This document shows, one piece after another, positions 5,119-43,834 of a DNA stretch of 64,000 bases; within the stretch, counting starts at the first letter, position 1; every line of letters begins with the position of its first letter. The notes below the pieces were generated by a model. It was not told the DNA's origin. It made no database searches and saw nothing but the letters and a program-made list of their open reading frames with translations. Made by a program: the position numbers and the translations under genes. Location of the stretch: assembly GCA_965240465.1 (NCBI GenBank), contig OZ251219.1:1-64000 (forward strand), in the 5' to 3' direction. The stretch is from a bacterium (GTDB lineage Bacteria > SAR324 > JACQKK01).

Positions 5119-6150
5119 ATGAAACCTACCAAACTTAATCTAAAAAAAGTAAAAGCAGTAGCTTTGGATGCCTCGGGAATGGATGATTCCGCCGATATCC
5201 AAGCCCAATATGCCGAAGTGATTTGGCTCTTGTTATTGAGAAACTACCAAGTCTATCTTTTCTCTGCCAAAAAAGATGGCCTCAATAAAGAAGATTTTTA
5301 TCATCCCAGATTGCAGTTTTTGCCTCAGATGCCACCGCCGCTCCCTAAAGATCCTCTCCTCAACGACTCACATTGCCTCTGGGTGACTAATCATCCCTCG
5401 CTAGAACGCTGGCTTGATACACATAACCGCTTCCGAATACACCTCGGTAGCAAAACACAACCCGATATCGCACGCATTGCCTCTCTAGATGAACTCAGCC
5501 TCGCCCTTGATCCCTTGACGCACAAGCTAGATGAAATCATCAGCACTATTGGGGAACTCAAAAAAAAATTCCCCCAGCGTGCCATCACTGTGGGAATTGG
5601 TGCTCCCCCTCGCAGTAACATCCAAGACTTTATCTTCATCCTCAAATCTGCCCTGCAGGATGCTAATTTACCCATCGTAGACACCCTTGATATATCATCC
5701 ATTACCCCCACTACCGAGGCATGCCCAACGCTCCCCAAGAATGCCCCATGGCAATCACCAAAAGCAGGACGATGGTTAATCAAAAACATGCTGCAACCGC
5801 TTCGGCAAGGACATGCCGTCCTGATAAAAGAAATACCTTCCGACCTCCTCCTTACAGATATTAAACCCCCTATCTACTTACACACCGAAACCATCTTGTT
5901 GCTCCATGCAGAAATGCTCTTCGTTCAACCCCTCCAACCATGGCTAGATGCCCACCTCCTCTTGGAACTCCCCACAGAAGAACAAACCCGCCGCGCCTAT
6001 GAAATCCCACCCTATCAATCCTTTGACCCAAAATTTACCCAGCAATTCCTAAAGTCAGAAGGTGCTTATTACCAAAACTACCTCCAGCATCACCGAGTAC
6101 AAAAACTTCAGCCGATTTCCATCAATTTCTTACCCGACAACCAGCCCTAA
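5119..6150 (+). CDS. Hypothetical protein; HAD-like N-terminus plus degenerate uridine-kinase-like domain
   Basis: KVKAVALD start; ITVGIGAPPRS, LLLHAEMLF, LDAHLLLEL...RRA resemble a nucleoside kinase fold without the GKT. Confidence 0.4.
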   Translation: MKPTKLNLKKVKAVALDASGMDDSADIQAQYAEVIWLLLLRNYQVYLFSAKKDGLNKEDFYHPRLQFLPQMPPPLPKDPLLNDSHCLWVTNHPSLERWLDTHNRFRIHLGSKTQPDIARIASLDELSLALDPLTHKLDEIISTIGELKKKFPQRAITVGIGAPPRSNIQDFIFILKSALQDANLPIVDTLDISSITPTTEACPTLPKNAPWQSPKAGRWLIKNMLQPLRQGHAVLIKEIPSDLLLTDIKPPIYLHTETILLLHAEMLFVQPLQPWLDAHLLLELPTEEQTRRAYEIPPYQSFDPKFTQQFLKSEGAYYQNYLQHHRVQKLQPISINFLPDNQP

Positions 6151-8516: not shown

Positions 8517-9986
8517 TTAACCTTCATAGGCGGGCAAGCCATATTTCTCAGGACATACAAGGTGATTATCGTTAAAGGCACGGGCATAATAAGAGTATCC
8601 TTCTGGTATCTTCATATCATCCAGAATTAAGCAGGCACTTTTAGCTAAAACTAATTCTTCAATATCTTCGTCAATGCTAGCAACGCGGGGTTTAACTGGA
8701 GACACATATCGGGTAGGTGAATTAATTTTTGCTAAAAAGATGCTCCCCGCAAAACCGTAGACCAGAGGTTGAACAGCAATCCCTTTTTCCCTTAGTGGCT
8801 TAAGAGCTCTTAAAAACCGATGCCTATCTGAGTCCGACAAGTTGTAGCCATCTTTAATCACTTTGGTATAATTATTTTCTACATGATGAAATGAAATTTG
8901 AAAGCAAATTATAGCAATAATAAACGCAATGGTGGGTCTATAAGACATCCACTGGTTAAGAGGCAATATCTTCTTCTTAGGCATACCAATAAACAATGCT
9001 AGGGTAGCTAGGCTCGCTAGTCCAACCAGAGAATAATGTCCATAACCGTTACCGCTGATAGTTGCAAAAAGAATGTCTGTCCCAAATATCAGTAAAAGTA
9101 TCTGTGTTAATGGTTGGCGAAATCCTTGGAAAGATCTTAATCCGCCTGTAACATGAAAAATAAGAGCTAATGATAAAGGACTTCTAAGAATAATTTTTAA
9201 GTTGTGAAACACCCCATCAATTCTTTTTTCTATTCCGATGTAAGACGTGTATTGCAGATTGTATTGTACGTATGTTTTCCAAAGTTCATGAAGATACCCA
9301 TTAACGTACGCATGAAGTAAAAAACTTCCCACCACAGCAAAGAAACAAGCTGTAGTGGCTAAAGCAGCCATTAGGACGGAGCGGTATCCAGAATGTTTGA
9401 ATGCCTGTACTAATAGAATTACAAATAGGATAAAACAACCTCCCCCATTGTTAATACGGGTGGTTACTGCCACACCACCAGCTACTCCTAGCAAAACAGC
9501 AGTGGTGATTAATAAAGAAAGTGAATCTTTATTTCCGTACCATAAACAATAGTAGCAATATCCCAGTAACTGAAGCGGGAATATCCAGCTCTCAGTCAAG
9601 TTTCCTCCTTGGAAAAGCAACAGGTAACTGGAGACTATAAGGAGCAATAGCAGGGAATGACCCCACTTATAAGCACTTTTTGGAGCTAGCTTTAATGCCC
9701 ATAATAAGGCAGTGATGGTTAACAATGATTCCAACATAATAACTCCCCATGCCTCATTTCCAGATATAAGCAATCCCCAAGCATTAAGATAGAAAAGCAA
9801 AGGTCCCTTGTGATCCCAGATATCTATGTACGGCAAGCCTCCTGTATTAATCACCCAGCCAGCATGCATAAAAATGCCTGAATCCCAGATGACCACCATG
9901 CTAGCTAATACTCCTAAAAAAGGAAGCGTGACTATCAGCAAATTCACCAAACTCGGGATCGCTACATATTTTTTGTACTTAAACAT
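8517..9986 (-). CDS. GT-C (ArnT/PMT-like) membrane glycosyltransferase, copy 1
   Basis: DSGIF...G...GGLPYIDIWDHKGP, GGNLTE, GYGHY; many TM helices; start placed at ATG aligning with copy 2. Confidence 0.75.
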   Translation of the reverse strand: MFKYKKYVAIPSLVNLLIVTLPFLGVLASMVVIWDSGIFMHAGWVINTGGLPYIDIWDHKGPLLFYLNAWGLLISGNEAWGVIMLESLLTITALLWALKLAPKSAYKWGHSLLLLLIVSSYLLLFQGGNLTESWIFPLQLLGYCYYCLWYGNKDSLSLLITTAVLLGVAGGVAVTTRINNGGGCFILFVILLVQAFKHSGYRSVLMAALATTACFFAVVGSFLLHAYVNGYLHELWKTYVQYNLQYTSYIGIEKRIDGVFHNLKIILRSPLSLALIFHVTGGLRSFQGFRQPLTQILLLIFGTDILFATISGNGYGHYSLVGLASLATLALFIGMPKKKILPLNQWMSYRPTIAFIIAIICFQISFHHVENNYTKVIKDGYNLSDSDRHRFLRALKPLREKGIAVQPLVYGFAGSIFLAKINSPTRYVSPVKPRVASIDEDIEELVLAKSACLILDDMKIPEGYSYYARAFNDNHLVCPEKYGLPAYEG

Positions 9987-20273: not shown

Positions 20274-23059
20274 GGAAGTTTTTCTCTCAGTTTATGGAGC
20301 AAGTTAAGGGCTTCTACAGGAGTGATTTCTTCCACATTTAGCTCTTTGATGGAATCAACGATGGGTTTCAACGATTGCGGTACGGAATTTGTTGCAGCAT
20401 TTGTTTCAGGCATTGATGGAGTTTCTGGCGGTATGGTGTGGTTATCAGTGCGGTTATCGGTGGGAGAAGTTGAAAAGAGCTGAGGTTGCTGGATGGGCTG
20501 TAGCGAAGTAAGTTCTTTTATCACTTGAGAGGCGCGTTTTATGATTTCGGGGGGGAGTCCTGCTAGTTTAGCTACTTGGATTCCGTAGCTACGGTCGCTA
20601 GGTTCTGGAGTTAGTTTATGGGTGAACGCCAATTTTCCTTTTTGTTCATGAACCTTGACCGAGAAGTTAATCAATCTGGGGAGGTGGTTACTGAGAGCAG
20701 TAAGTTCGTGGTAGTGGGTGGCAAACATGGTCAAGGGGCCTGCTTGGTGGAGGTACTCTGCGATTGCCCATGCGATGCTGATGCCATCATAGGTGCTAGT
20801 GCCGCGTCCGATTTCGTCTAGGATAATCAAGCTATTGGGGGAGGCATTGTTGAGGATATTAGCAGTTTCGAGCATTTCCATCATGAAGGTACTTTGTCCG
20901 CGGGCGAGGTTATCGGCAGCACCCACGCGGGTAAAGATGCGATCCATCACGCTTAGACTGGCTGATTTAGCAGGGACGAAGCTACCAGATTGTGCCATCA
21001 GCTGGATGAGGGCTGTTTGTCGCATTACGGTGGATTTGCCTGCCATATTGGGACCAGTGATAAGCATGGTTTGCTGTTTATTTTTACTAAGGTAGATGTC
21101 ATTTGAGATGAAAGGGACTTTCATTTCCAGCACTGGATGCCGACCGCCTTTGATGTCAATAGTGGCAGGATTAAGAGCGAGGATCTGGGGTTTGCAATAT
21201 TGGTTTTGATAAGCTGTTTCTGCTAGGCTGGAGAATAGGTCCAGGGTAGCGATCTGGGAGGCAGTTTTCTGCATTCGTCTTAGGTAGCCCCGAATTACTT
21301 TACGAATGTCCTCAAAGAGTTCTTGTTCCAATTGGCAAGCCTGCTGTTTGGCAGTGAGGATTTTTATTTCCAGTTGTTCCAGTTCATCCAGAGTAAATCG
21401 CTCTGCATTGGCTAGGGTTTGCTTTCTTCTATATTCGCTCGGAGCATGGATAGCTCGGGCTTTGGGCAACTCTATGTAATATCCAAATACCCGATTATAA
21501 CGCACCTTCAAAGATGCAATCCCCGTTCGCTCCCGCTCCTTGCTCTCTAACTGAAGCAATACCTCGTTGCTGTTCTTAGATAATAACCTACGCTCATCCA
21601 GCTCCTTGCTTACTCCATCTGCAATGTAGCCCCCTTCGCTCAGCTTCAAGTGCGGTTGTGAGTGCAGCTTCTTATGTAAATGTTCCTTTACCTCATCCAG
21701 AGGGTCAAAACCTTGGGCTAATCTCACTAAAAGAGCTTCGCCATCCATGATTTCAGAGGGCTCCTTAGAGTCGCTGGTTTTAGTGTCTTTCACTGAAGGC
21801 TCCAACATGCATTCTAGCTCCTCACCCAAGCCTGTTAGCCCGTCCAGAGAATCTCGCAGAGCAACCATATCTGCTACTCCAGACTGCAAAGATCCCGTCC
21901 TAGCGATCGTCCGTTCTAAATCTTTCACCAGACTAAAACACTCCCGCAAGCGATGTCGTACATCGGCATTTTTCATCAAGTATTGAACCGCATCTAGCCT
22001 CTTCTCAATGCGAACCGCACTCAGCAAAGGATAGGTCAACCACCGACGCAACATCCTTGAACCCATAGGCGTACAACAGCAATTCAACACCGTAAATAGG
22101 CTATCCTTGCCGAATACCTCCAAATGACGCAAAGATAACTCATCCAAACGCATCTGCTCGCTATCACGCCTGATCCGTGGACGATGCAAATGCAACAAAT
22201 CGTGCTTGATATGCTCCAAATAATCCAGCAAACCACCCGTAGCTCGCAAAGCCAACTTCAAATCACTCAAACCAAATCCATCCAAACCCCGCACCTCATA
22301 CAACTCCTCCAAACGCTTTGACGCCCATACAGCATCAAATGCCTCCCATGGACGCTCATCCAAACGCATCGCCATCCCCTCTGCCGATAACTTATTCAAT
22401 ACCCCACGAATAACAGCATGAGTAACAGCGTGAGTAACAGCACCATCCTCGCTCACCTTAGGCAACAATACCTCCCTCGGACGCTCTACCTCGCATAACT
22501 CCGTCAAACGCTTAGCTATCTCTTCTGTAGCACCACCCCATTGAAAAAACTCCCACCGACCCGTAGTCACATCCGCTAGCGTACCCCCCAAATCGCCTCC
22601 TCTATCCAACCACAAAGATAATATGTAATGACCACGACCACCTTCGCCATCCCCAAATAACAACGTCCCCGGCGTAGCTACCCGAACTACCTTACGCTCC
22701 ACCAACTTGCCCGATACTGGCGGCTCCATCTGATCCACCACTGCCACCTTGTAACCCTGCTCCACCAACTTATTCACATACTGCTCATATGCATTACACG
22801 GAACCCCGCACATCGCCAAACGACCCCCATCACCCTTATTCTGACGCGAAGTCAAGGCTATCCCCAACGCCTCAGCTCCCAACTCTGCATCCTCCCCAAA
22901 CATCTCGTAAAAATCCCCCGCTTGAAAAAATAATAAACAATCCAACAAACCACGCTTCAAATCATTAAACTGACGCATCATCGGAGTTGACGCATTCACC
23001 ATCCCACCAGCCCGCTTCTTTAACGATGAACCCCGCTCTGCAGAAATCCCAGCAACCAT
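20270..23059 (-). CDS. mutS: DNA mismatch repair protein MutS
   Basis: TPMMRQ, GDFYEMF, ITGPNMAGKST, GQSTFM, DEIGRGTST, FATHYHEL, SYGIQVA. Confidence 0.97.
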   Translation of the reverse strand: MVAGISAERGSSLKKRAGGMVNASTPMMRQFNDLKRGLLDCLLFFQAGDFYEMFGEDAELGAEALGIALTSRQNKGDGGRLAMCGVPCNAYEQYVNKLVEQGYKVAVVDQMEPPVSGKLVERKVVRVATPGTLLFGDGEGGRGHYILSLWLDRGGDLGGTLADVTTGRWEFFQWGGATEEIAKRLTELCEVERPREVLLPKVSEDGAVTHAVTHAVIRGVLNKLSAEGMAMRLDERPWEAFDAVWASKRLEELYEVRGLDGFGLSDLKLALRATGGLLDYLEHIKHDLLHLHRPRIRRDSEQMRLDELSLRHLEVFGKDSLFTVLNCCCTPMGSRMLRRWLTYPLLSAVRIEKRLDAVQYLMKNADVRHRLRECFSLVKDLERTIARTGSLQSGVADMVALRDSLDGLTGLGEELECMLEPSVKDTKTSDSKEPSEIMDGEALLVRLAQGFDPLDEVKEHLHKKLHSQPHLKLSEGGYIADGVSKELDERRLLSKNSNEVLLQLESKERERTGIASLKVRYNRVFGYYIELPKARAIHAPSEYRRKQTLANAERFTLDELEQLEIKILTAKQQACQLEQELFEDIRKVIRGYLRRMQKTASQIATLDLFSSLAETAYQNQYCKPQILALNPATIDIKGGRHPVLEMKVPFISNDIYLSKNKQQTMLITGPNMAGKSTVMRQTALIQLMAQSGSFVPAKSASLSVMDRIFTRVGAADNLARGQSTFMMEMLETANILNNASPNSLIILDEIGRGTSTYDGISIAWAIAEYLHQAGPLTMFATHYHELTALSNHLPRLINFSVKVHEQKGKLAFTHKLTPEPSDRSYGIQVAKLAGLPPEIIKRASQVIKELTSLQPIQQPQLFSTSPTDNRTDNHTIPPETPSMPETNAATNSVPQSLKPIVDSIKELNVEEITPVEALNLLHKLREKLP

Positions 23060-23275
23060 GTCCTTTGATTATTTCTTATGAGGGTAAAATAGATTGAAAT
23101 CTCAAAATCTTTCACCCCAATCATACTGCAATTAACCATAAAAGAGGTACTCACTGCACCTCCTAAAATAACTAAATCTTTTTGCCTTGATACTTATTCA
23201 TGTTAAAGTGAGTTGCTTTGTTAAAGTAGATGCTACCGCGTAAATCTCGCTATACTCAGCTTGAGAACCATAACC

Positions 23276-23479
23276 ATGATCAAAGTAACAGGCACTAGCA
23301 CAGATGGACACACCTGGACCTTCTATACCGACTCCGCTGATGAATGGCGGTGGCGAAGAACTACTGCTGATGGAAAAACCATCTGGGCGGCCACTGAAGG
23401 TTATAAAAGCTTCTCCGACTGCTATGACAACGCACTCCTCCCCGCATATGATGGCCCATGTCCTAAAATGTCGTCCTAA
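23276..23479 (+). CDS. YegP/DUF1508-like small protein
   Basis: FYTDSADEWRWR...ADGKTI...EGY pattern. Confidence 0.6.
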   Translation: MIKVTGTSTDGHTWTFYTDSADEWRWRRTTADGKTIWAATEGYKSFSDCYDNALLPAYDGPCPKMSS

Positions 23480-23486
23480 AATGTCG

Positions 23487-23589
23487 TCCCAGAATGTCGC
23501 AGACTAACCCACCCCTTCCAAATCCACTTCTGCCACCTCTTGCAAGCACTGCTGAGTTTCAATCGCGGTCTGGCAAACTCGCTTGATTA
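23487..23589. repeat. 103-bp direct repeat, left copy
   Basis: Identical to 24683..24785 by manual comparison. Confidence 0.93.
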
Positions 23590-23629
23590 AAATGTTTATT
23601 CATGTTACAATCAGCCAGACCGCTTTTCT

Positions 23630-23791
23630 AAATCAATCTACCATTCCAGTAGCAAGCACAGATGACATGTAAATGAGTTCGCTTTTAGGTTGAATGATGG
23701 TAGTGTGAGGCGGTGTGTGCTTGAGCGTATTGACAGCTTACTTGAAAGGATTGTTGGCAAGCGACTAACACATAGGAGGATGGTACAATAA
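23630..23791 (+). pseudogene. IS1595-family transposase C-terminal remnant #1
   Basis: KSIYHSSSKHR*HVNEFAFRLNDGSVRRCVLERIDSLLERIVGKRLTHRRMVQ*; resembles YH..S.KHL.RY.NEF.FR.N...GKRLTY..L. Confidence 0.75.
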
Positions 23792-23807
23792 TAAAGAAAG
23801 GCAGTAA

Positions 23808-24305
23808 ATGGATACACAAAAATCAAAACAAAGAGAGTATAGCCCAGGCTGCATAGCCAACTATTTTATTGCAAATTGTAAAAAACCAACTAATTTAAAA
23901 CTAAATAAGTTGTCTTATATTTCTTATGGTCTTGCTCTTGCTCTTTATGACATAGAAATCTTTCAAGAAGCTATACAGGCTTGGAAATTAGGTCCTGTAA
24001 TTCCTTCCATATACCATGAATTTAAGTCATATGGCACTTCTACCATTACCATAGACAAACTATCTTACAGCTATAGCTATCTAGATGATGAAAAAGTTTA
24101 TTTCAAAATAGATAATGATGATAAAAAAGTAGAAGGTGTTTTAAAAAAAGTAATAGAAAACTATGATGATATGCCTATATCAGCACTGATAGCAAGAACG
24201 CATGAGGAAGGTACTCCCTGGTATGAATCTTATGTAGAAGGTGTCAGCAATAAAATAATACATAAGGAATGTATAAAAAAATATTATGCTAAACTCTTGA
24301 AATAG
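23808..24305 (+). CDS. Panacea-domain (DUF4065/SocA/GepA) antitoxin
   Basis: IANYFI, TNLKLNKLSY, IQAWKLGPVIPSIYHEFK, LIARTHEEGTPW. Confidence 0.88.
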   Translation: MDTQKSKQREYSPGCIANYFIANCKKPTNLKLNKLSYISYGLALALYDIEIFQEAIQAWKLGPVIPSIYHEFKSYGTSTITIDKLSYSYSYLDDEKVYFKIDNDDKKVEGVLKKVIENYDDMPISALIARTHEEGTPWYESYVEGVSNKIIHKECIKKYYAKLLK

Positions 24306-24311
24306 GTTTTT

Positions 24312-24638
24312 ATGGAATCGCAAGAAACAGAAGGAAAAATACAATTCGTAAGTAAAGAAAGTAGTAAAGGAAATGGAGTTGAAGGTATAGATTGGGAAAG
24401 ACAGAGACAAGAAGATACCAATAAACAAAGGAATGTGTTTTTTCTCTTTTCTGTTAAAATTGTGTGCTTTTGGATGCTTTTTTTAGCTTTACTTTCTGCG
24501 GTACAGATGATGGTTCCTATATTTATTTGTGAATTTGAAGGACTTTCTGATATTAAATTCGGATTTGTTTTTGGAACGGCTACAATCAGTATACTGGGGC
24601 TTTTGCATACAATTGGCAGGTCAATCTTTAGAAAATAA
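24312..24638 (+). CDS. Two-TM protein, putative toxin partner of Panacea
   Basis: 6 bp downstream of the antitoxin; charged N-terminus then two hydrophobic helices. Confidence 0.55.
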   Translation: MESQETEGKIQFVSKESSKGNGVEGIDWERQRQEDTNKQRNVFFLFSVKIVCFWMLFLALLSAVQMMVPIFICEFEGLSDIKFGFVFGTATISILGLLHTIGRSIFRK

Positions 24639-24682
24639 ACACTTAAAAACCCTTGTCAAAAAGGGTACATGACCCATTTTTA

Positions 24683-24785
24683 TCCCAGAATGTCGCAGAC
24701 TAACCCACCCCTTCCAAATCCACTTCTGCCACCTCTTGCAAGCACTGCTGAGTTTCAATCGCGGTCTGGCAAACTCGCTTGATTA
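24683..24785. repeat. 103-bp direct repeat, right copy (3' end of Type ISP fragment plus 17 nt)
   Basis: Identical to 23487..23589. Confidence 0.93.
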
Positions 24786-24978
24786 GGCGTACGTTTTCTT
24801 CGGGGTTTTGGTTGGGATCGTTCACTATCCCGCTGGGTTTATCGGTTTTTACTCGTAGGCTATCAACCACCCAATCCAAGGCACTGCGATTACCCAGCTT
24901 CCAATCGTGTACGCGGGCGGGGATGCCTGTCAGGGTTAGACACTTGTTCACTTGCATTTGGTATTTTTTGTGATACAC
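24700..24978 (-). pseudogene. C-terminal fragment of Type ISP-like R-M enzyme
   Basis: LTLTGIP...WKLGNRSALDWVVD...KTDKPSGIVNDPN...LIKRV...ET, typical Type ISP C-terminus. Confidence 0.8.
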
Positions 24979-25108
24979 TGGCCACGCGTTTCATAACCCT
25001 TGTCATATAGGATGTGAATAGCGTGAGCAATGCACCTTTTTTAGGTTCTAACGGGGATAAAGTGACACTCACTTTTTTGGATCGTCACAGATGGACCTTT
25101 TGTACTGA

Positions 25109-25204
25109 CTCTCTCGTGAAATAGACACTATTGGTAGGATTAGAAATGTAGTATTGAATATGAGTGGTAAAAGATTGAGTTACAGAGAATTGATAAATGG
25201 ATAG
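25109..25204 (+). pseudogene. IS1595-family transposase C-terminal remnant #2
   Basis: LSREIDTIGRIRNVVLNMSGKRLSYRELING*; its last codons overlap the ATG of the R-M gene. Confidence 0.65.
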
Positions 25205-27671
25205 TGTAGACAAAATTATTGAAAATGGTGTAAAAACCAAATTATTATCTATTGATCTTGATGAAGACAATATAGTCTACGAAATTCAAAATAAAATATA
25301 TAAGTTTTCTAACCCAGAAGAAAAAGTAAGGGCTATTACTTATATTAATTTAGTTGAAAAATATAATTATTCTCCCTATTTAATTGATTTTGAAGTTCCT
25401 GTACCTAGAAGAACACCCAATGATTTGGCAGATATTGTTGTATATAAGGATGATAAAAAGACACAAAACTATTTAGTGGTTGAAAATAAGAAAAGAAATA
25501 TTAGTGATACTGAATTTAATCAAGCAATAGAACAGGGTTTTGGTAATGCTAATAGTTTAAGAGCAGAATATTTATTAGTTTCTAATTTAGATAATTTTAA
25601 ATGTTATGATGTTCAAAATTTTGCTCCAAATGAAAGATTAGATAATCAAATACAAGATATACCAATTAATTATGGATCAGTACCTGAATACAAATATATA
25701 AAAAATCAAAGTGCTCTGGAGATAGTATCTTTTGAAAAATTATCTAAAGTATTCAAGAAATGTCACGATATTATTTGGTCTGGTGGCAAATTAGACCCTT
25801 CTTCTGCTTTTGATGAAATGAGCAAAATTTTATTTGCTAAAATTCAAGATGAAAGAAATACCAAAAACAATGAAGCATATAAACTTCAGGTTGGTACATA
25901 CGAGAATGAAGTAGTAGTATCTCATAGAGTGTTAGAACTTTATCAAGATGCCCAAAAACTTGACCCTGCTGTATTCTGTGAAGGTATTAATGTAACATAC
26001 CCAAAAATATTTCAAGTTGTAAAATTATTACAAAATATTTCTTTAAGTGAAACTGATATTGATGCCAAAGGACAAGCATTTGAAAAATTCTTGGGAGTGG
26101 TTTTTAGAGGTGGTTTAGGTCAATATTTTACAAGAAGACAAATAGTAGAATTTGTTGTAGATTTTTTAGAACCATCAGATGGCGACTATATATTAGACCC
26201 CAGTTGTGGCAGTGGTGGTTTCTTATTATATAGTTTAAAAAAAGTAATAGAACAAATTAAAAATGATCATAAGGGAGATAACGATTTAATAGCAAGAAAA
26301 ACACAAAACTTCTCTAATCAAAATATTTATGGTATAGAAATCAATGACAAGATTTCAAGAGTTTCTAAAATGGATATGGTTATAAATGGTGATGGTCATA
26401 CTAATATTGAAAACAATACAGGACTAAATAATATTTATCAAAATCCAAATATACACTACGGTAAATTCTCTCTTATATTAAGCAATCCACCTTTTGGGGT
26501 AAAAATAAAAAAGGGCAATAGAGATGATTTAGGTAATAATGATTTTAATAATTTTGAATTTGGAAAAGGTAAAAGTGTAGATTCTGATATTCTGTTTCTG
26601 GAACAATATCATAAATTCTTAACGAGTGAAGCAAGAAAAAAACCTAGACTTGGAGTAGTTGTTCAGACTGGAATAATTAATAATCCAAGTAATAAAAGAT
26701 TACTTGAGTGGATAAAGTGTAATTTTAAAATTATAGGAATAATTAATCTTCCTATATTTTCTTTTAGAAAAGCTGGTTCAGGTATGAAAACTGTTTTGTT
26801 ATTCCTGTCTAAATACCCAAAGCCTTATAAATCAATAAAATATGTTCCTAATTATGAATTATTTTTTTCTATAGCAGAGCATATTGGATATGATAGCACT
26901 TTAAGAGATGATACTAATGATTTACCATGCATATTAAAAGAATATAAACAACATATTAATTCAAAAAATAGTTTCTGGTATGAATTTAAAAATTTAGAAT
27001 ATAGGATAGACCCTATTTATTACAAAAATAAGCAATTAATATCAAAACAAATTAACGAATTTAAAAAACATAATATAAAAGTTGTAAGACTATCAAATAT
27101 TTTAGCGGATGGTGAGGTATCTGGCAAATCTCCAGAAGGTGGTGTTACTAGAAGCACAGGTGAAATTCCAAGTATAACAATTAGTAACATAACAAAAGAA
27201 GGAAATATTAGTTTTGATGACGATATAAATTTTGTACCAGAAGCATTTTATGAGAATTTTAACAAAATAAAAGGAAAAGCAAAAATAGGAGATATTTTAA
27301 TTGCCAAAGATGGTGCTACCACAGGAAAAACTGCTATGATAACTGAAGACTATTTAGAAACTATTTTTAGTGAACATGTATTTAGATTAAGGGTTTGTAG
27401 CAATATATCATCATCTTATATACACGCATTTTTGAATAGTAAATTGGGTCAATTACAAATAGAGACTGTTATTTCAGGTGGTGCTCAAGGTGGGATTACC
27501 AAAGGATTTTCAGAAAATATTTTTATACCTTTAATTAAAAACCAAGATAATATTGCAAAATATTGGGAAGAAAATATCACTATTATTGAAGAACTAAAGA
27601 AAGAATATACTGGAAAAACTGATGAATTAAAAAATGGCATTGTAGAAAAAATTATTATGGAGTCAAATTAA
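25197..27671 (+). CDS. Fused restriction-modification protein: HsdR-N-like nuclease + N6-adenine MTase + single TRD (Type IIG-like)
   Basis: PEEKVR...ADIVVY...VENKK; GQYFTRR, LDPSCGSGGFL, NPPFG; GDILIAKDGATTGK...GGAQ; very AT-rich. Confidence 0.85.
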   Translation: MDSVDKIIENGVKTKLLSIDLDEDNIVYEIQNKIYKFSNPEEKVRAITYINLVEKYNYSPYLIDFEVPVPRRTPNDLADIVVYKDDKKTQNYLVVENKKRNISDTEFNQAIEQGFGNANSLRAEYLLVSNLDNFKCYDVQNFAPNERLDNQIQDIPINYGSVPEYKYIKNQSALEIVSFEKLSKVFKKCHDIIWSGGKLDPSSAFDEMSKILFAKIQDERNTKNNEAYKLQVGTYENEVVVSHRVLELYQDAQKLDPAVFCEGINVTYPKIFQVVKLLQNISLSETDIDAKGQAFEKFLGVVFRGGLGQYFTRRQIVEFVVDFLEPSDGDYILDPSCGSGGFLLYSLKKVIEQIKNDHKGDNDLIARKTQNFSNQNIYGIEINDKISRVSKMDMVINGDGHTNIENNTGLNNIYQNPNIHYGKFSLILSNPPFGVKIKKGNRDDLGNNDFNNFEFGKGKSVDSDILFLEQYHKFLTSEARKKPRLGVVVQTGIINNPSNKRLLEWIKCNFKIIGIINLPIFSFRKAGSGMKTVLLFLSKYPKPYKSIKYVPNYELFFSIAEHIGYDSTLRDDTNDLPCILKEYKQHINSKNSFWYEFKNLEYRIDPIYYKNKQLISKQINEFKKHNIKVVRLSNILADGEVSGKSPEGGVTRSTGEIPSITISNITKEGNISFDDDINFVPEAFYENFNKIKGKAKIGDILIAKDGATTGKTAMITEDYLETIFSEHVFRLRVCSNISSSYIHAFLNSKLGQLQIETVISGGAQGGITKGFSENIFIPLIKNQDNIAKYWEENITIIEELKKEYTGKTDELKNGIVEKIIMESN

Positions 27672-27972
27672 AATGACAGGGATAGCCTAGTTTGAATTTT
27701 TTATCAATTTCGTCTTTGAGATTATCTTTATCGTCTTTGGCTTCCCAGTAGAAGTGCAATTCACCTGCTTGGATGGTGGCATCGGGTATTTTATTATTGG
27801 GTAGGGGTTTTTCCACCACAAATTTCCAGCCTCTTTGCTTGCAGCAGTAGGACAACAATTCTTTCATGGGTTCACGAGTGCTTAGTTCATTTGGATTATC
27901 TTCTAGCAGCGATTGTAGGTGTGGGTAGTAGTGATCTACAATACGCGTTTGGGTGGGTTTAAGTGTTGGCAT
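27655..27972 (-). pseudogene. N-terminal fragment of Type ISP-like/IIG R-M enzyme (PD-(D/E)xK)
   Basis: NELSTR...LL...W....E...IPDAT...YWEAKDDKDNL..EI.KKF..GYP, then sequence derails at the insert. Confidence 0.7.
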
Positions 27973-27974
27973 CG

Positions 27975-29444
27975 CTAGTCATTATGGAAGAGGGGAGGGA
28001 ATTTCACTGAGTCGCTGGGTTTGGGGATGAAGGATGGTGTATTGAGACCTAAGCCGAGTTGTTTGCTAGAGTTTTCTCCCCAGCAGAAGACATTATTTTG
28101 GCGAGACATAAGGCAAGTATGATGGCTAGCATCTGCGGCAGCTATTATTTCTGGCAATATAACGTGCTGGGCTGGTCTTCTGATATTGGTGGTGTTATTG
28201 ACTCCGAGTTGTCCTGAGTTATTTTCTCCCCAGCAGTCTAGTTCTAGTGTAGCGAGTATGCAAGTGTAGTTGTTGCCAGCGATTGCCTTAGTGACAAACG
28301 TTCGTGAAGCAACTGCGGCGGTGGGTCTGGCACAGATGGAGTTTGAGCAATTTGAGGGGGGTGGTTCATAAATGCCGAGTTGTCCATAGGAGTTATCACC
28401 CCAGCAATGGATTTCCTTGGCTTCGCTAATGAGGCAAGCATGTTGCCCTCCTGCGAGCAACGCGCCTGGGGGTTTATACCATTGGATAGGGGCAGGACTA
28501 CCTGTTTTACTGATGTAATTACGTCCTAGTTGTCCTTCGGCATTGCGTCCCCAGCAGTGGATGCTATGAAGAAGCATCGCGCAAGAGAATCCTTGCCCAG
28601 TGGCGATACTCAGAGCAGGTGCAGACAGCACAACTAAATGCGAGATACGCCTGCTAGGGTGTACGCCTAGTTGTCCGTAGCGATTATCTCCCCAGCATTG
28701 GATGGTACCGTTATCCAGCAGAGCACATGTATGGGCTCCTGCCGCGGAGATTTCGGTAGCCTTGTCTTCCAGCGAGATTGTTATCGGTTGGCTGCAATGG
28801 CTAGGGTCTTCACATTCGGTGCCTGATGCTAACCCTAGCTGTCCGAAGGAGTTATCGCCCCAACATTGAACAACACCATCATCCAGCAGAGCACATGTGT
28901 GTGAAATCCCTGCCGATACCGATTGTGCTAACTGGCTGAGCCTAACAGGTCTGGTAGGCACTGAAAAAAGGCAGGTTTCCTTATCGTCACTACTGGAGAT
29001 CTCGCAAGGCAGAGCAGTATCGGGCTTGATGCCTGATTCTCCTACGAGGTTGCCTCCCCAGCAATATACATCGCCCCGAGAATGTAGCGTACAAGTGTGT
29101 CCGACTCCCACTGCGATACCTGCAGAGCCTCTTCTCCGCCTGTTTTGACCTTGCAATACGAGAGCTTGAATTCTTGCATTTTCCCGCGCAACAGCAGTAG
29201 CAACAGCAGCAGCAGCAACAGCAGTAGCAACAGTAGTGGCTTCTTTTTGCTCTGCGGTTTTAGGTGGCTTGATTGAGGTTGATTTTTCAGGAGTACAGCT
29301 TGCTGTAGTTCCTATTAAGAGAACACACCAAACCGTTAACAAAATGTTCCTGTGAATAATCACCAATTTGTAACACTCAACAACTATTCTTCGGAATTTC
29401 TCATTGCTGGGAATTCTTTTGCCAGAATGTCCCACTAGTCGCAA
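27975..29444 (-). CDS. RCC1/BLIP-II repeat lipoprotein (start uncertain)
   Basis: Repeated HTCAL..G.V.CWGDN..GQLG; TTASC lipobox-like. Confidence 0.85.
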   Translation of the reverse strand: MRLVGHSGKRIPSNEKFRRIVVECYKLVIIHRNILLTVWCVLLIGTTASCTPEKSTSIKPPKTAEQKEATTVATAVAAAAVATAVARENARIQALVLQGQNRRRRGSAGIAVGVGHTCTLHSRGDVYCWGGNLVGESGIKPDTALPCEISSSDDKETCLFSVPTRPVRLSQLAQSVSAGISHTCALLDDGVVQCWGDNSFGQLGLASGTECEDPSHCSQPITISLEDKATEISAAGAHTCALLDNGTIQCWGDNRYGQLGVHPSRRISHLVVLSAPALSIATGQGFSCAMLLHSIHCWGRNAEGQLGRNYISKTGSPAPIQWYKPPGALLAGGQHACLISEAKEIHCWGDNSYGQLGIYEPPPSNCSNSICARPTAAVASRTFVTKAIAGNNYTCILATLELDCWGENNSGQLGVNNTTNIRRPAQHVILPEIIAAADASHHTCLMSRQNNVFCWGENSSKQLGLGLNTPSFIPKPSDSVKFPPLFHND

Positions 29445-41565: not shown

Positions 41566-42480
41566 ATGCCTACCAAAAATACCCGCCGAAAAAGTAAAAT
41601 ACAAAAAAACACGCTAAAAAAAACCGAGTCCAAAGGTAGAGTAACCTCTAAAAAAGTACCCTCTAAACCCACTACCCCAAAAAAATCACTCAAGAAAAAT
41701 ACTGCCCCTCCCGTGGGCATCATTGCCGATAAATCACTCAAGAAAAATACTGCCCCTCCCGTGGGCATAATTGCTGATGCTGCCAAGCAGTTACTACCCA
41801 AGGCCAAAGCAGGTGATACCCAGGCACAACATGATTTAGGTATTCTTTACTATTTGGGAGAAGGAGGACTATTTAAAGACCCGCGTCAGGCTGCAAAATG
41901 GCTACGACAAGCTGCCGAACAGGGACATGTTAGTGCTCAACAAAAGATGGGGCTGCTTCACGACAGCGGACAGGGAGTCCCCTTAGACCGCAAACAAGCC
42001 GTTTTCTGGTACGAAAAAGCCGCCGCTCAGGGAGAAACTTCAGCCCAAATTCGCTTGGGCATGTTGCGTCACAACGATCGCGATGTTCCTCCCGATCATA
42101 AAGCAGCTGTTGCCCTTTATCAAGCAGCCGCAGAGCAAAACGTACCTGAAGCACAATTCAACCTGGGACTACTACATGAGCAAGGAATCGGCGTTCCTCA
42201 AAGTTATTCCACAGCTGCAAAATGGTATCTTCACTCAGCCCTACAGGGATTTCCCCTTGCTCAACACAATCTGGGTGCCATGTTCTTTGAAGGCCGAGGA
42301 GTAATAAAAAATAACACCCAAGCCTTCGTTTGGTTGGAACTCGCCGCCGCTCAAAAAGATGACAAATCCATCTGGCTAAAAAACGTTCTACTTAAAGTAA
42401 TCACTGATGAAGAACTCGCTGAAGCACAAAACCTGATCAAAAAAATGCTGTCTAGCCCAAAACATACCGATAAACAATAA
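41566..42480 (+). CDS. Sel1-repeat protein with basic disordered N-terminus
   Basis: AQ..LG..Y..G.GV..D...A..W...AA.QG repeats; 48-bp internal duplication KSLKKNTAPPVGIIAD x2. Confidence 0.88.
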   Translation: MPTKNTRRKSKIQKNTLKKTESKGRVTSKKVPSKPTTPKKSLKKNTAPPVGIIADKSLKKNTAPPVGIIADAAKQLLPKAKAGDTQAQHDLGILYYLGEGGLFKDPRQAAKWLRQAAEQGHVSAQQKMGLLHDSGQGVPLDRKQAVFWYEKAAAQGETSAQIRLGMLRHNDRDVPPDHKAAVALYQAAAEQNVPEAQFNLGLLHEQGIGVPQSYSTAAKWYLHSALQGFPLAQHNLGAMFFEGRGVIKNNTQAFVWLELAAAQKDDKSIWLKNVLLKVITDEELAEAQNLIKKMLSSPKHTDKQ

Positions 42481-42583: not shown

Positions 42584-43834
42584 ATGAAAGTATCTTTCGG
42601 ACTGCAATTTGTGTTTTTGGCTGTTGGTTGTTTGGCTCTGGTATCCTGTGATTCAGCTCCTAAAGAAGATGAGAACATTATATCTATTGAGGTAGTTCCT
42701 CCTGACGTTACCAATAGTTACCTAAAGGATGTTTCCGATATTTCTGTTGGCAATAGCCATAGCTGTGCAATATCAGACGGAAAGTTATTTTGCTGGGGTC
42801 TGGGTAATGATGGTCAATTGGGTAAAAAAAACAACCTCAGTAGCAAAAAACCTACCCACGTAAAGTGGGACGTAAATAATATAGAAGTAAATTTTGTCAA
42901 TGCCAGTGCCATAGAAGCTGCAGGATCCAGTAGCTGTGCTTTGCGAAACGGTGTTGCCTTCTGCTGGGGTAGTAATAATGACAGCCAATTGGGAGATGGT
43001 TCCGTTGACAACCACAATACACCAACCATGGTTGGCGGACTGACCACAGGAATTACTAACATCACTATCGGAAGGCAACATGGATGTGCCATAGAAAATG
43101 GTGGTGTTAAATGCTGGGGCAGTAACACTTATTCTCAAATTGGAGACGGCACTTCTAGTAGACGTAGCACCCCAGTAAGTGTTACTGATACTAACCTCGG
43201 CAATGCTGTTATGATCTCCGCAGGATACTTGCACACCTGTGCCATCTCAAATGGAAGGATATATTGCTGGGGACGCGGTCAAGAAGGCCAGCTGGGTGAT
43301 GGCACTATTAATGACCGCTCCTTCCCAGTGAGTGTTAGTGGTAACGGATCTTTTAGCCTAGTTTCCGCAGGAGAAAAGCACACCTGTGCTATTAAAAATG
43401 GAGGTGCTTATTGCTGGGGAAACGGTACAAAAGGACGTCTGGGAGACAACAATAATGAAGCCTCTTCACCCTCACCTGTAGAAGTCAGCGACTCAGAAGA
43501 AGATATAAATATGCAGAGCGGAATCACTCATATTTCTGCCAGCAAAGAATATTCCTGTGCTGTCGCATCTGGTGCCCTCCTCTGCTGGGGACGAGGTACA
43601 GAAGGTCAGTTGGGAAATAATTCCACCGAAAATAGCCTGATTCCGGTAAAAGTATTGGGACTAAACACGGGTGTAACAGCCGTAGCAACAGGTGATAACA
43701 GTGCCTGTGCTGTCAAGATGGGATATGTCTGGTGCTGGGGTGCGGGTGCCCAAGGACAACTGGGTAATAACCTTAAAAGAAATTCTCTCATCCCAGTGGC
43801 AGTGATTACCCCTACCAACGATATTTTGCCGTAA
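42584..43834 (+). CDS. RCC1/BLIP-II repeat lipoprotein
   Basis: LVSC lipobox; seven H(T/S)CAI..G...CWG....GQLG repeats. Confidence 0.88.
   Translation: MKVSFGLQFVFLAVGCLALVSCDSAPKEDENIISIEVVPPDVTNSYLKDVSDISVGNSHSCAISDGKLFCWGLGNDGQLGKKNNLSSKKPTHVKWDVNNIEVNFVNASAIEAAGSSSCALRNGVAFCWGSNNDSQLGDGSVDNHNTPTMVGGLTTGITNITIGRQHGCAIENGGVKCWGSNTYSQIGDGTSSRRSTPVSVTDTNLGNAVMISAGYLHTCAISNGRIYCWGRGQEGQLGDGTINDRSFPVSVSGNGSFSLVSAGEKHTCAIKNGGAYCWGNGTKGRLGDNNNEASSPSPVEVSDSEEDINMQSGITHISASKEYSCAVASGALLCWGRGTEGQLGNNSTENSLIPVKVLGLNTGVTAVATGDNSACAVKMGYVWCWGAGAQGQLGNNLKRNSLIPVAVITPTNDILP

Follow-up and report, generated by a model that had tools for sequence, protein, structure and literature searches.

Transporter insertion sequences and the exchange of defence genes

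The IS1595 family of insertion sequences (ISs) is recognised to include transporter insertion sequences (tIS), in which the space from the transposase gene to the right inverted repeat is taken up by passenger genes (10.1101/2021.05.26.445724). We analysed a stretch of 64,000 nucleotides from a bacterium of the SAR324 lineage (positions 1 to 64,000 of the forward strand of contig OZ251219.1, assembly GCA_965240465.1; hereafter the window), in which two short low-GC segments lie inside the remains of a resident restriction gene. One carries a predicted Panacea toxin–antitoxin (TA) pair, the other a fused restriction–modification–specificity (R-M-S) gene, and each is headed by what is firmly (tail 1) or probably (tail 2) the last part of an IS1595-family transposase gene. 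The locus shares with the IS1595 tIS the position of transposase sequence directly upstream of, and co-directional with, genes that have no part in transposition. It differs from them in what is missing: only the last ~66 and ~28 codons are left, the zinc ribbon and the DDE domain are absent, and there are neither inverted repeats nor an 8-bp target duplication. In the window, the cargo stands behind the tails as passengers stand behind the transposase gene in complete elements, and the right inverted repeat, which would close the passenger position, is absent. Our searches of the openly accessible literature (supplements excluded) yielded nothing on IS1595 elements carrying Panacea pairs or fused R-M-S genes.

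Restriction–modification (RM) genes are known to change places in several ways, and three of these resemble parts of the locus. Furuta, Abe and Kobayashi described in 2010 the insertion of RM units with long target duplication, reported for all RM types and recognised by a direct repeat longer than 30 bp around an insert shorter than 20 kb, with tabulated repeats of 46 to ~420 bp (PMC2853133). The first of our segments has the same outline, being a low-GC insert of 1093 bp between 103-nt repeats, with no working mobility gene and with repeat length and insert size inside those limits; a repeat of 103 nt is far longer than any transposase makes. It differs in content, because it holds a TA pair and a dead transposase stub in place of R and M homologues. 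The same authors report allelic substitution of RM genes at one locus (PMC2853133), which the second segment recalls in that a Type ISP-like gene has been replaced in place by a gene of a different type, the fused R-M-S gene. The replacement is internal to the gene and leaves both of its old ends, whereas in the published cases a whole gene is exchanged between shared flanks. Their paper also names the description of the IS1595 family (Siguier et al. 2009) as one of the sources on ISs that flank RM or solitary M genes, and presents a unit of Neisseria gonorrhoeae with Type IIG, S, and transposase-like genes within 26-bp inverted repeats and an 8-bp duplication (PMC2853133). Two of the comparison loci described below (L007 and L001) likewise hold R-M(-S) and transposase genes inside inverted repeats, in L007 with an 8-bp duplication. 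The passages of that paper describing the unit leave the transposase family and the agent of movement open; here, in contrast, the family is IS1595 (NCBIfam NF033547), and the window has no such borders.

As regards the TA pair, Kurata et al. (2022) verified PanT toxins that depolarise the membrane and reported transposase genes near many PanAT pairs (PMC8832971). The pair in the window agrees with theirs in the succession of a Panacea gene and a small protein whose N-terminal half is charged and whose C-terminal segments span the membrane, the terms in which the verified PanT clusters T3 and T12 are described (PMC8832971). It differs in that its 108-aa second protein belongs to no named family and that the toxin pair is a prediction.

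Two low-GC segments within a destroyed Type ISP-like gene

The mean G+C content of the window is 44%, and two islands of 25–33% G+C stand out from it (~23800-24650 and ~25100-27700). On sequence evidence, the two segments to which they belong are foreign low-GC islands within a destroyed resident Type ISP-like RM gene of ~1000 aa. Neither the islands, nor the fragments of this gene on the minus strand, nor the direct repeat described below had been recorded in the first-pass annotation of the stretch, which described two defence cassettes, each headed by an IS1595 transposase remnant, and proposed their delivery by non-autonomous IS1595 elements.

The host gene survives as two ends only. Its first ~99 codons (ISP-N, 27655..27972, minus strand) match residues 2-102 of a protein of 1024 aa (P0133); the homology stops near 27676, and the final few codons of this open reading frame (ORF) run into the junction. 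Its last ~96 codons (ISP-C, 24700..24990, minus strand, GC 0.51) match residues 937-1022 of the same protein (BLASTP, E 7e-21), as well as positions 277-340 of the 342 in the Pfam profile Type_ISP_C (E 1.5e-11). As the two ends match one and the same protein, ~834 codons (2.5 kb) of the resident gene must be gone. ISP-N has 146 relatives at E<=1e-3, mostly aligned at their N-termini, and a domain scan of the long ones revealed ISP_coupler and N6_Mtase in 12 out of 12 and Type_ISP_C in 11. The remnant thus falls short of the full Type ISP-like architecture (N-terminal domain, ISP_coupler, N6_Mtase, Type_ISP_C), the gene being destroyed. The two fragments are now 2685 bp apart, separated by a stretch of host-like GC, then tail 2, and then the R-M-S gene, with the right junction of segment 2 within ~5 bases of the R-M-S stop codon.

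Segment 1 (23590-24682, 1093 bp) is framed by a perfect 103-nt direct repeat, R1 (23487..23589) being 100% identical to R2 (24683..24785), and the sequence has only these two copies in the window. On the minus strand, R1 contains the final 86 nt of the host-gene coding sequence, including the stop codon, and a trailer of 17 nt. R1 is read in one continuous frame with the part of ISP-C that lies in R2, and R2 itself runs on, in frame, into the rest of ISP-C. Tail 1 begins at the first base past R1. The native left flank is retained by R1 and is marked by a small DUF1508/HVO_2922-like host gene (23261..23479, plus strand, GC 0.49), which faces the Type ISP-like gene 3' end to 3' end. It scores below the cut-offs of both families (Pfam DUF1508, E 4.3e-4, 20.6 bits for a cut-off of 22; NCBIfam HVO_2922, E 3.9e-7, 30 bits for a cut-off of 90).

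Two smaller repeats were seen at the left edge of this structure. A 13-bp tandem array (GTCCTAAAATGTC, 3.1 copies, 23460..23499, Tandem Repeats Finder score 66) covers the stop codon of the DUF1508-like gene and reaches across the left border of R1; the breakpoint of the duplication falls within its last unit. A 22-nt inverted repeat (23553-23574 / 23614-23635, 77% complementary, with a perfect 10-nt core GCGGTCTGGC / GCCAGACCGC) spans the junction between R1 and segment 1, and could be due to chance or a trace of the joining event.

The borders expected of an IS were found at neither segment. The repeat search gave no inverted repeat bounding segment 1 or segment 2, and the end motif GGGRATTAT of the complete elements described below has no occurrence within 22919-28468, even with one mismatch allowed. 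There is no 8-bp target duplication at either segment: segment 1 has 103 nt, and segment 2 has no flanking direct repeat. Both segments are therefore without the catalytic part of the transposase, without inverted repeats, and without an 8-bp duplication. Having neither IS ends nor target duplication, they are not mobilisable by a transposase, even by one supplied in trans. They are consequently not the non-autonomous IS1595 cassettes that had been proposed, and the junctions, with a 103-nt duplication at segment 1 and a substitution within the restriction gene at segment 2, speak for delivery to this site by means other than IS1595 transposition. The hexamers TGTCAT and ATGACA, put forward as borders of the R-M cassette, occur at chance frequency (31 in the window, 33.8 expected). 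The proposed terminal motif of the TA cassette, GTACATGACC, is present at 24665-24674, and no meaning could be attached to it. An 11-mer, AACCCTTGTCA, common to 24648 (end of segment 1) and 24995 (left edge of segment 2), was discarded as not significant.

Remnants of two IS1595-family transposase genes

Tail 1 (23591..23791, plus strand, GC 0.41) corresponds to the last ~66 codons of an IS1595-family transposase gene, in a decayed state. The two unannotated frames from which the first-pass annotation had started both exist where it placed them, and the first of them (23630-23791) is interrupted by an in-frame TGA (23663-23665), which leaves a clean stretch at 23666-23791 (HVNEFAFRLN...GKRLTHRRMVQ, then a stop). 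With the TGA read as X, tail 1 was searched against a database of 5.8 billion proteins, and 8 out of 20 candidates scored E 9.7e-9 to 4.1e-5 at 48-57% identity. All eight contain PF12762, six contain PF12760 (the IS1595 zinc ribbon), and six are 305-367 aa long. Aligned with the last ~66 residues of these relatives, tail 1 shows one stop and two single-codon gaps, and the full-length IS1595 profile reaches it only at positions 264-302. These similarities firmly identify tail 1 as what decay has left of the 3' end of a transposase gene of the IS1595 family. It has no match in Pfam or NCBIfam, whose models miss or cannot score such short C-terminal pieces. A tblastn search against plasmids returned three records at E 5-7, the top one annotated as an IS1595 transposase; it turned out to be a complete tIS. 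From the end of tail 1 to the ATG of the Panacea gene (23808), in the same direction, there are 16 nt.

Tail 2 (25109..25204, plus strand, GC 0.32) probably represents the last ~28 codons of a second, different IS1595-family transposase; its frame reads LSREIDTIGRIRNVVLNMSGKRLSYRELING followed by a stop, spans 31 codons, and overlaps the ATG of the R-M-S gene (25197) by 8 nt in the same direction. A C-terminal profile made from seven of the tail 1 matches, from which tail 2 was excluded, placed tail 2 second among 2977 six-frame fragments (E 0.0043; the next at 2.2), and a full-length profile from six of these matches also gave it as the second-best fragment of the window (E 0.038; the next at 0.12). 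In both profiles, it falls on the very last positions (277-302 in the full-length one). In a single pairwise BLASTP comparison with the C-terminus of the complete L007 transposase introduced below, 12 of 29 residues are identical with no gap (E 2e-4). The assignment is probable and not proven, so that the reported identity of the two remnants holds firmly for the first, with its eight PF12762 matches, and with less certainty for the second.

The two tails are only 27% identical in alignment, and two different elements must therefore have been involved, as had been supposed. Their position directly upstream of the cargo, in the same direction, was likewise described correctly. The window contains no further transposase remnants, according to the profile search and to Pfam over 43 ORFs. 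The catalytic DDE domain and the N-terminal zinc ribbon are absent from it, as the profile reaches only the C-terminal positions of the tails.

The cargo genes

The first gene of segment 1 encodes a PanA-type antitoxin of 165 aa (23808..24305, plus strand) that matches Pfam PF13274 SocA_Panacea over the full profile length (1-113; E 2.5e-16, 61.1 bits, cut-off 25.7). With the SocA equivalog of NCBIfam (NF047745), it scores 69.3 bits, below the cut-off of 190, and we regard it as a Panacea-domain protein and not as SocA proper. Its distant relatives annotated as SocA occur on 43 plasmid records, all at less than 60% identity. Six nt past PanA starts the gene of a 108-aa protein (24312..24638, plus strand) whose N-terminal half is charged and whose C-terminal half is hydrophobic. 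Its hydropathy peaks at 2.0-2.45 over residues 43-73 and is ~1.25 over residues 79-103. The protein has no family in Pfam, NCBIfam or PADLOC, and in the cluster atlas all of its 30 nearest clusters are unnamed (the three listed are of 108-120 aa, top score 0.96). Judged by its hydropathy and by the spacing of 6 nt, it is a putative membrane-acting PanT toxin. A consensus scan indicated a short terminator-like G+C hairpin at 24649..24666, inside the last 44 nt of the segment. The GC content of the cargo of segment 1 is 0.32.

The cargo of segment 2 is a fused R-M-S gene of 824 aa (25197..27671, plus strand, GC 0.27), with an HSDR_N_2 nuclease, a gamma-class N6-adenine methyltransferase, and one target-recognition domain. 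The domains are supported by Pfam (N6_Mtase 7.5e-25, HSDR_N_2 1.3e-14), PADLOC (MTase_I 4.8e-100, Specificity_I 3e-23), and NCBIfam (MAD5 2.2e-13). Across 30 homologues, D79, E96, DP..GSGGF, and NPPF are invariant, K98 is conserved in at least 90%, and the C-terminus coincides with the ends of the homologues; by these features, the gene looks intact. The nuclease, the S-adenosylmethionine (SAM) and NPPF motifs, and the recognition domain stand in one predicted chain, as in Type IIG enzymes. The MAD2 equivalog of the MADS system gives 230 bits against a cut-off of 720, which makes the protein a relative and not a member. The family is large: of 7999 candidates that were scored, 2028 proteins reach E<=1e-10. 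On plasmids, tblastn gave no close relative of full length, and the best match covers 67% of the query at 37.6% identity.

Among named proteins, those closest to the R-M-S protein (P0010 and P0011) come from two green algae, Caulerpa manorensis (an ORF of 823 aa, 74% identity) and C. cliftonii (829 aa, 73%), to which it is sister in our tree with support 99. Further close relatives (P0012, P0013) are 63-65% identical. The lengths of the Caulerpa proteins equal those of the chloroplast ORFs orf823 and orf829, described by Cremen et al. (2018) as freestanding 'Type I RM methylase' genes of bacterial origin (PMC5888179). This hints at an exchange of R-M-S genes between a bacterium and the chloroplasts of siphonous algae.

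Complete IS1595 elements carrying R-M-S and other genes

Complete elements of the same layout exist elsewhere. We scanned R-M-S loci with one genome per species and obtained 80 loci, at 33-56% identity to the R-M-S protein of the window, the source genome not being among them. The IS1595 profile, run over all six frames of these loci, gave matches in three (L001, L007, L034), each adjoining the R-M-S homologue, and NF033547 confirmed an IS1595 transposase in two of the three. The clearest case is L007, from a metagenome-assembled genome (MAG) of Dehalococcoidia. It is a complete element of 3848 bp with a target duplication of 8 bp (TAACGTTT) and inverted repeats perfect over 25 of 25 positions, which contains, in this order, the transposase gene, the R-M-S gene, and a small ORF. 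The TGA of the transposase gene overlaps the ATG of the R-M-S gene (ATGA, 4 nt), and the R-M-S protein is 43% identical to that of the window. By its sequence, L007 is the layout of the window with the missing parts in place. In L001 (a MAG of Actinomycetes, 54% identity), the order is R-M-S gene and then transposase gene, and the two are enclosed by inverted repeats of 41 nt with 85% complementarity; a target duplication could not be identified in this locus. In L034, the transposase gene is divergent, and inverted repeats were not found. The other Dehalococcoidia loci share with L007 only the R-M-S coding region, and have no inverted repeat, transposase gene or small ORF.

The phylogeny of the R-M-S proteins (FastTree, 54 rows) places L001 and L007 in well-supported clades, apart from each other and from that of the window, and L034 on a long branch elsewhere, with unsure placement. 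The family thus adjoins IS1595 genes in separate clades, and this, together with the different gene orders, suggests repeated capture. In all three loci, the GC content of the R-M-S gene is 7-11 points under that of its own transposase gene. Such a step being usual there, the lower GC of the cargo relative to its tail in the window is no objection to their common history.

In the other 77 loci, those without an IS1595 gene, no vestigial tail precedes the R-M-S gene, although a remnant like tail 2 (14.7 bits) should clear the thresholds used in that search. A recurrent loss of the transposase with retention of its tail is not seen in this sample. The transposases in the flanks belong to IS1595 in two loci and to IS4 in one (150 out of 372 flank ORFs scanned, loci L001-L032). 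Two further features of the loci were recorded. ARAGORN reports in L001 a 'tRNA-Asp' with the odd anticodon atc (9782-9868), within the inverted repeats and downstream of the transposase gene, which is probably a pseudo-tRNA. In 6 of the 31 loci scanned (L002, L003, L014, L015, L016, L017), from Patescibacteria, archaea, and one MAG of Anaerolineales, the R-M-S gene is preceded in the same orientation by a gene of the RadC family, with which it may form a conserved pairing.

We also examined plasmid relatives of tail 1. A search with one of the tail 1 matches (P0001) gave hits in 198 plasmid records, and from 60 listed rows we hand-picked 11 copies, from different organisms, in which the match reaches at least residue 294 of the 306-aa query (one of the 30 Pseudosulfitobacter records was included, and a few listed rows meeting this cut were left out). 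Three of the 11 (L081, L084, L089) are tIS bounded by inverted repeats, with 8-bp duplications and passengers that start -4 to +17 nt from the transposase stop. In the Roseomonas marmotae plasmid (L081, 2228-4831, duplication TATCTTTA), the passengers are an unnamed gene of 266 aa, a PIN-domain gene, and a ~60-aa ORF; this copy is nested in another element with perfect 27-nt inverted repeats (1923-1949 / 5740-5766). The tIS of Methylobacterium oryzae pMOC1 (L084, 693-4105, duplication AATCGGAA) carries an unnamed gene of 288 aa, a VapC/PIN gene, and two more ORFs. These two tIS are related and have the same passenger set (a 266-288 aa protein, PIN/VapC, a ~60-aa ORF). The third, in Salipiger profundus plasmid pTPRO6 (L089, 2384-5115, 37-nt inverted repeats, duplication ACGGCAGG), has a single passenger of 555 aa with a Cas12f1-like TNB domain (TnpB-like), which starts at the base after the transposase stop. 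The usual partners of TnpB are IS200/IS605 or IS607 transposases. The remaining 8 copies are plain ISs or have convergent or unrelated neighbours.

Together with L007, these make four complete IS1595 tIS with 8-bp duplications, related ends (GGGRATTAT in L007 and L081, with near-matches, GG(G/C)RATTAT, in L084 and L089), and R-M-S, PIN/VapC, or TnpB/Cas12f-like cargo. They bear out the earlier statement that some IS1595 members carry passenger genes. The expectation that homologues of the cargo would be found beside IS1595 elements was borne out for the R-M-S gene (L001, L007, L034) and not for the TA pair: among the 11 plasmid copies there is no Panacea pair, nor is there any RM gene. An enrichment of defence genes among IS1595 passengers, which had also been suggested, is not shown by this sample.

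Origin of the segments

The tails can be read as provenance tags, each cargo set having presumably once been the passenger of an IS1595 tIS. We favour, with moderate confidence, the view that the segments are fossil pieces of such tIS that arrived already truncated, by recombination independent of a transposase. The ancestral locus, between mutS and an RCC1-repeat gene, would have consisted of a DUF1508-like gene convergent with a Type ISP-like gene of ~1000 aa. Segment 1 (transposase tail, PanA, and small membrane toxin) would have come in by insertion with long target duplication, as the repeat, which is still perfect, begins right where the transposase is truncated. Segment 2 (28-codon tail and R-M-S gene) would have replaced ~2.5 kb of the resident restriction gene. 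The stubs might persist if the last transposase codons hold the ribosome-binding and start region of the passenger, perhaps also its promoter. Since the passenger starts inside the end of the transposase gene (with an overlap of 8 nt here and 4 nt in L007), pieces that express the cargo would keep the stub; a promoter scan gave sites at consensus level only. Both types of cargo can moreover be addictive, as RM and TA systems may punish their loss, and this would favour deletions that stop at the edges of the cargo.

Several points weigh against this view. The segment 1 cargo is placed among passengers by its position, tail 1 having a host-like GC (0.41) and the cargo one of 0.32, and no relative of the PanA pair was found beside an IS1595 element (the surroundings of the PanA plasmid relatives were not inspected). 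The 103-nt repeat is assumed to be a target duplication. Tail 2 is a short piece with no match in Pfam or NCBIfam; its database search, read through the upstream TGA as X (47 aa), gave one candidate and no relative, tblastn against plasmids gave nothing, and its match to L007, taken across all 80 loci, has only E 0.29 and rank 3. Between ISP-C and tail 2, which it abuts, there is moreover a stretch of host-like GC that the model leaves unexplained (25014..25108, plus strand). It resembles the N-terminus of the DUF1508-like gene (DRHRWTFCTDS against DGHTWTFYTDS) and has no family match in Pfam or NCBIfam. In DNA local alignment, 25080-25111 and 23303-23334 agree at 78% over 32 nt with a score of 29, above all 200 shuffles (17 +/- 2.3, maximum 25). 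The expression role of the tails and the deletions shaped by addiction are things that we infer. Finally, the search for IS1595 spans 64 kb of a 1.6-Mb contig, so that intact copies may exist elsewhere in the genome.

Alternatively, two complete IS1595 tIS could have transposed into the Type ISP-like gene, and deletions could later have taken away their inverted repeats and target duplications, most of both transposase genes, and ~2.5 kb of the gene that they had entered. The stop and the two gaps in tail 1 are visible decay, so that the unit has some age, the succession of tail and cargo equals that of the complete L007, L081, L084, and L089, and small genomes tend to lose DNA through deletion, the contig here being of ~1.6 Mb. 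Decay in place nevertheless needs at least four independent deletions, each stopping no more than a few bases from a cargo boundary (23590, 24682, ~25109, and 27672-27676), it has left no trace of an IS end, and deletion cannot make a perfect 103-nt duplication. We consider it unlikely, while granting it some weight, and hold with moderate confidence that arrival by recombination is to be preferred to it. It is distinctly improbable that tail and cargo are chance neighbours, the tails being old resident IS debris beside which low-GC cargo, never an IS1595 passenger, landed independently. The fall in GC from tail 1, which is host-like at 0.41, to its cargo at 0.32 would fit this, as would the tendency of IS fragments and defence genes to accumulate alike in variable loci and the fact that we found no IS1595-PanAT unit elsewhere; transposase genes near many PanAT pairs are also on record (PMC8832971). 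But the pairing occurs twice within 1.5 kb, with two different tails, both co-directional with the cargo and ending 16 nt before or 8 nt into its start. Tail 2 has the GC of its cargo (0.32 and 0.27), tail 1 begins right where the duplication ends and so came in with segment 1, and among the comparators the complete L007 has the same overlap of transposase stop and R-M-S start, with GC steps of 7-11 points being normal in all three.

Contigs can also be joined wrongly, and assembler k-mers are of about the size of a perfect ~100-nt repeat, such that the mosaic, and chiefly the 103-nt repeat, might come from joined strain variants of a mixed sample. We regard this as very unlikely indeed: the window belongs to a contig of 1,599,138 bases, the copies of the repeat have sensible and different flanks, with the second running in frame into ISP-C, and an artefact would leave the tails and the gene fragments unexplained.

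If the segments did arrive as fossil pieces of tIS, one could go further and suppose that a transposase tail with its abutting passenger forms a self-sufficient expressed module, which spreads after the death of the IS without a transposase, through insertion with long target duplication and through allelic replacement within resident restriction genes. This extension is clearly doubtful. Were it true, the IS1595 tIS would be feeders that repeatedly acquire R-M-S, toxin, and nuclease genes and pass them on to defence loci, and the R-M-S lineage of the window would be one that extends to chloroplast genomes of Caulerpa (74% identity). Stubs carrying expression signals for the cargo would explain the survival of such vestiges and would make them search handles for genes that were once passengers. 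The locus is a compact worked example of defence-gene exchange, in which one restriction gene has been written over another that was resident, and in which a TA pair is inserted with a 103-nt duplication, a mode described for RM systems (PMC2853133) and without a known mechanism. It is instructive yet a variation on known themes, and the complete elements, with the R-M-S genes that adjoin IS1595 genes in separate clades, may be more useful than the window itself.

Other features of the window

Rfam and tRNA scans gave nothing in the region of the two segments. The window also encodes two RCC1-repeat proteins and a Sel1-repeat protein (27975-29444, 41566-42480, 42584-43834). The presence of such eukaryote-like repeat proteins in a small genome (contig of ~1.6 Mb) suggests a host-associated or intracellular lifestyle.

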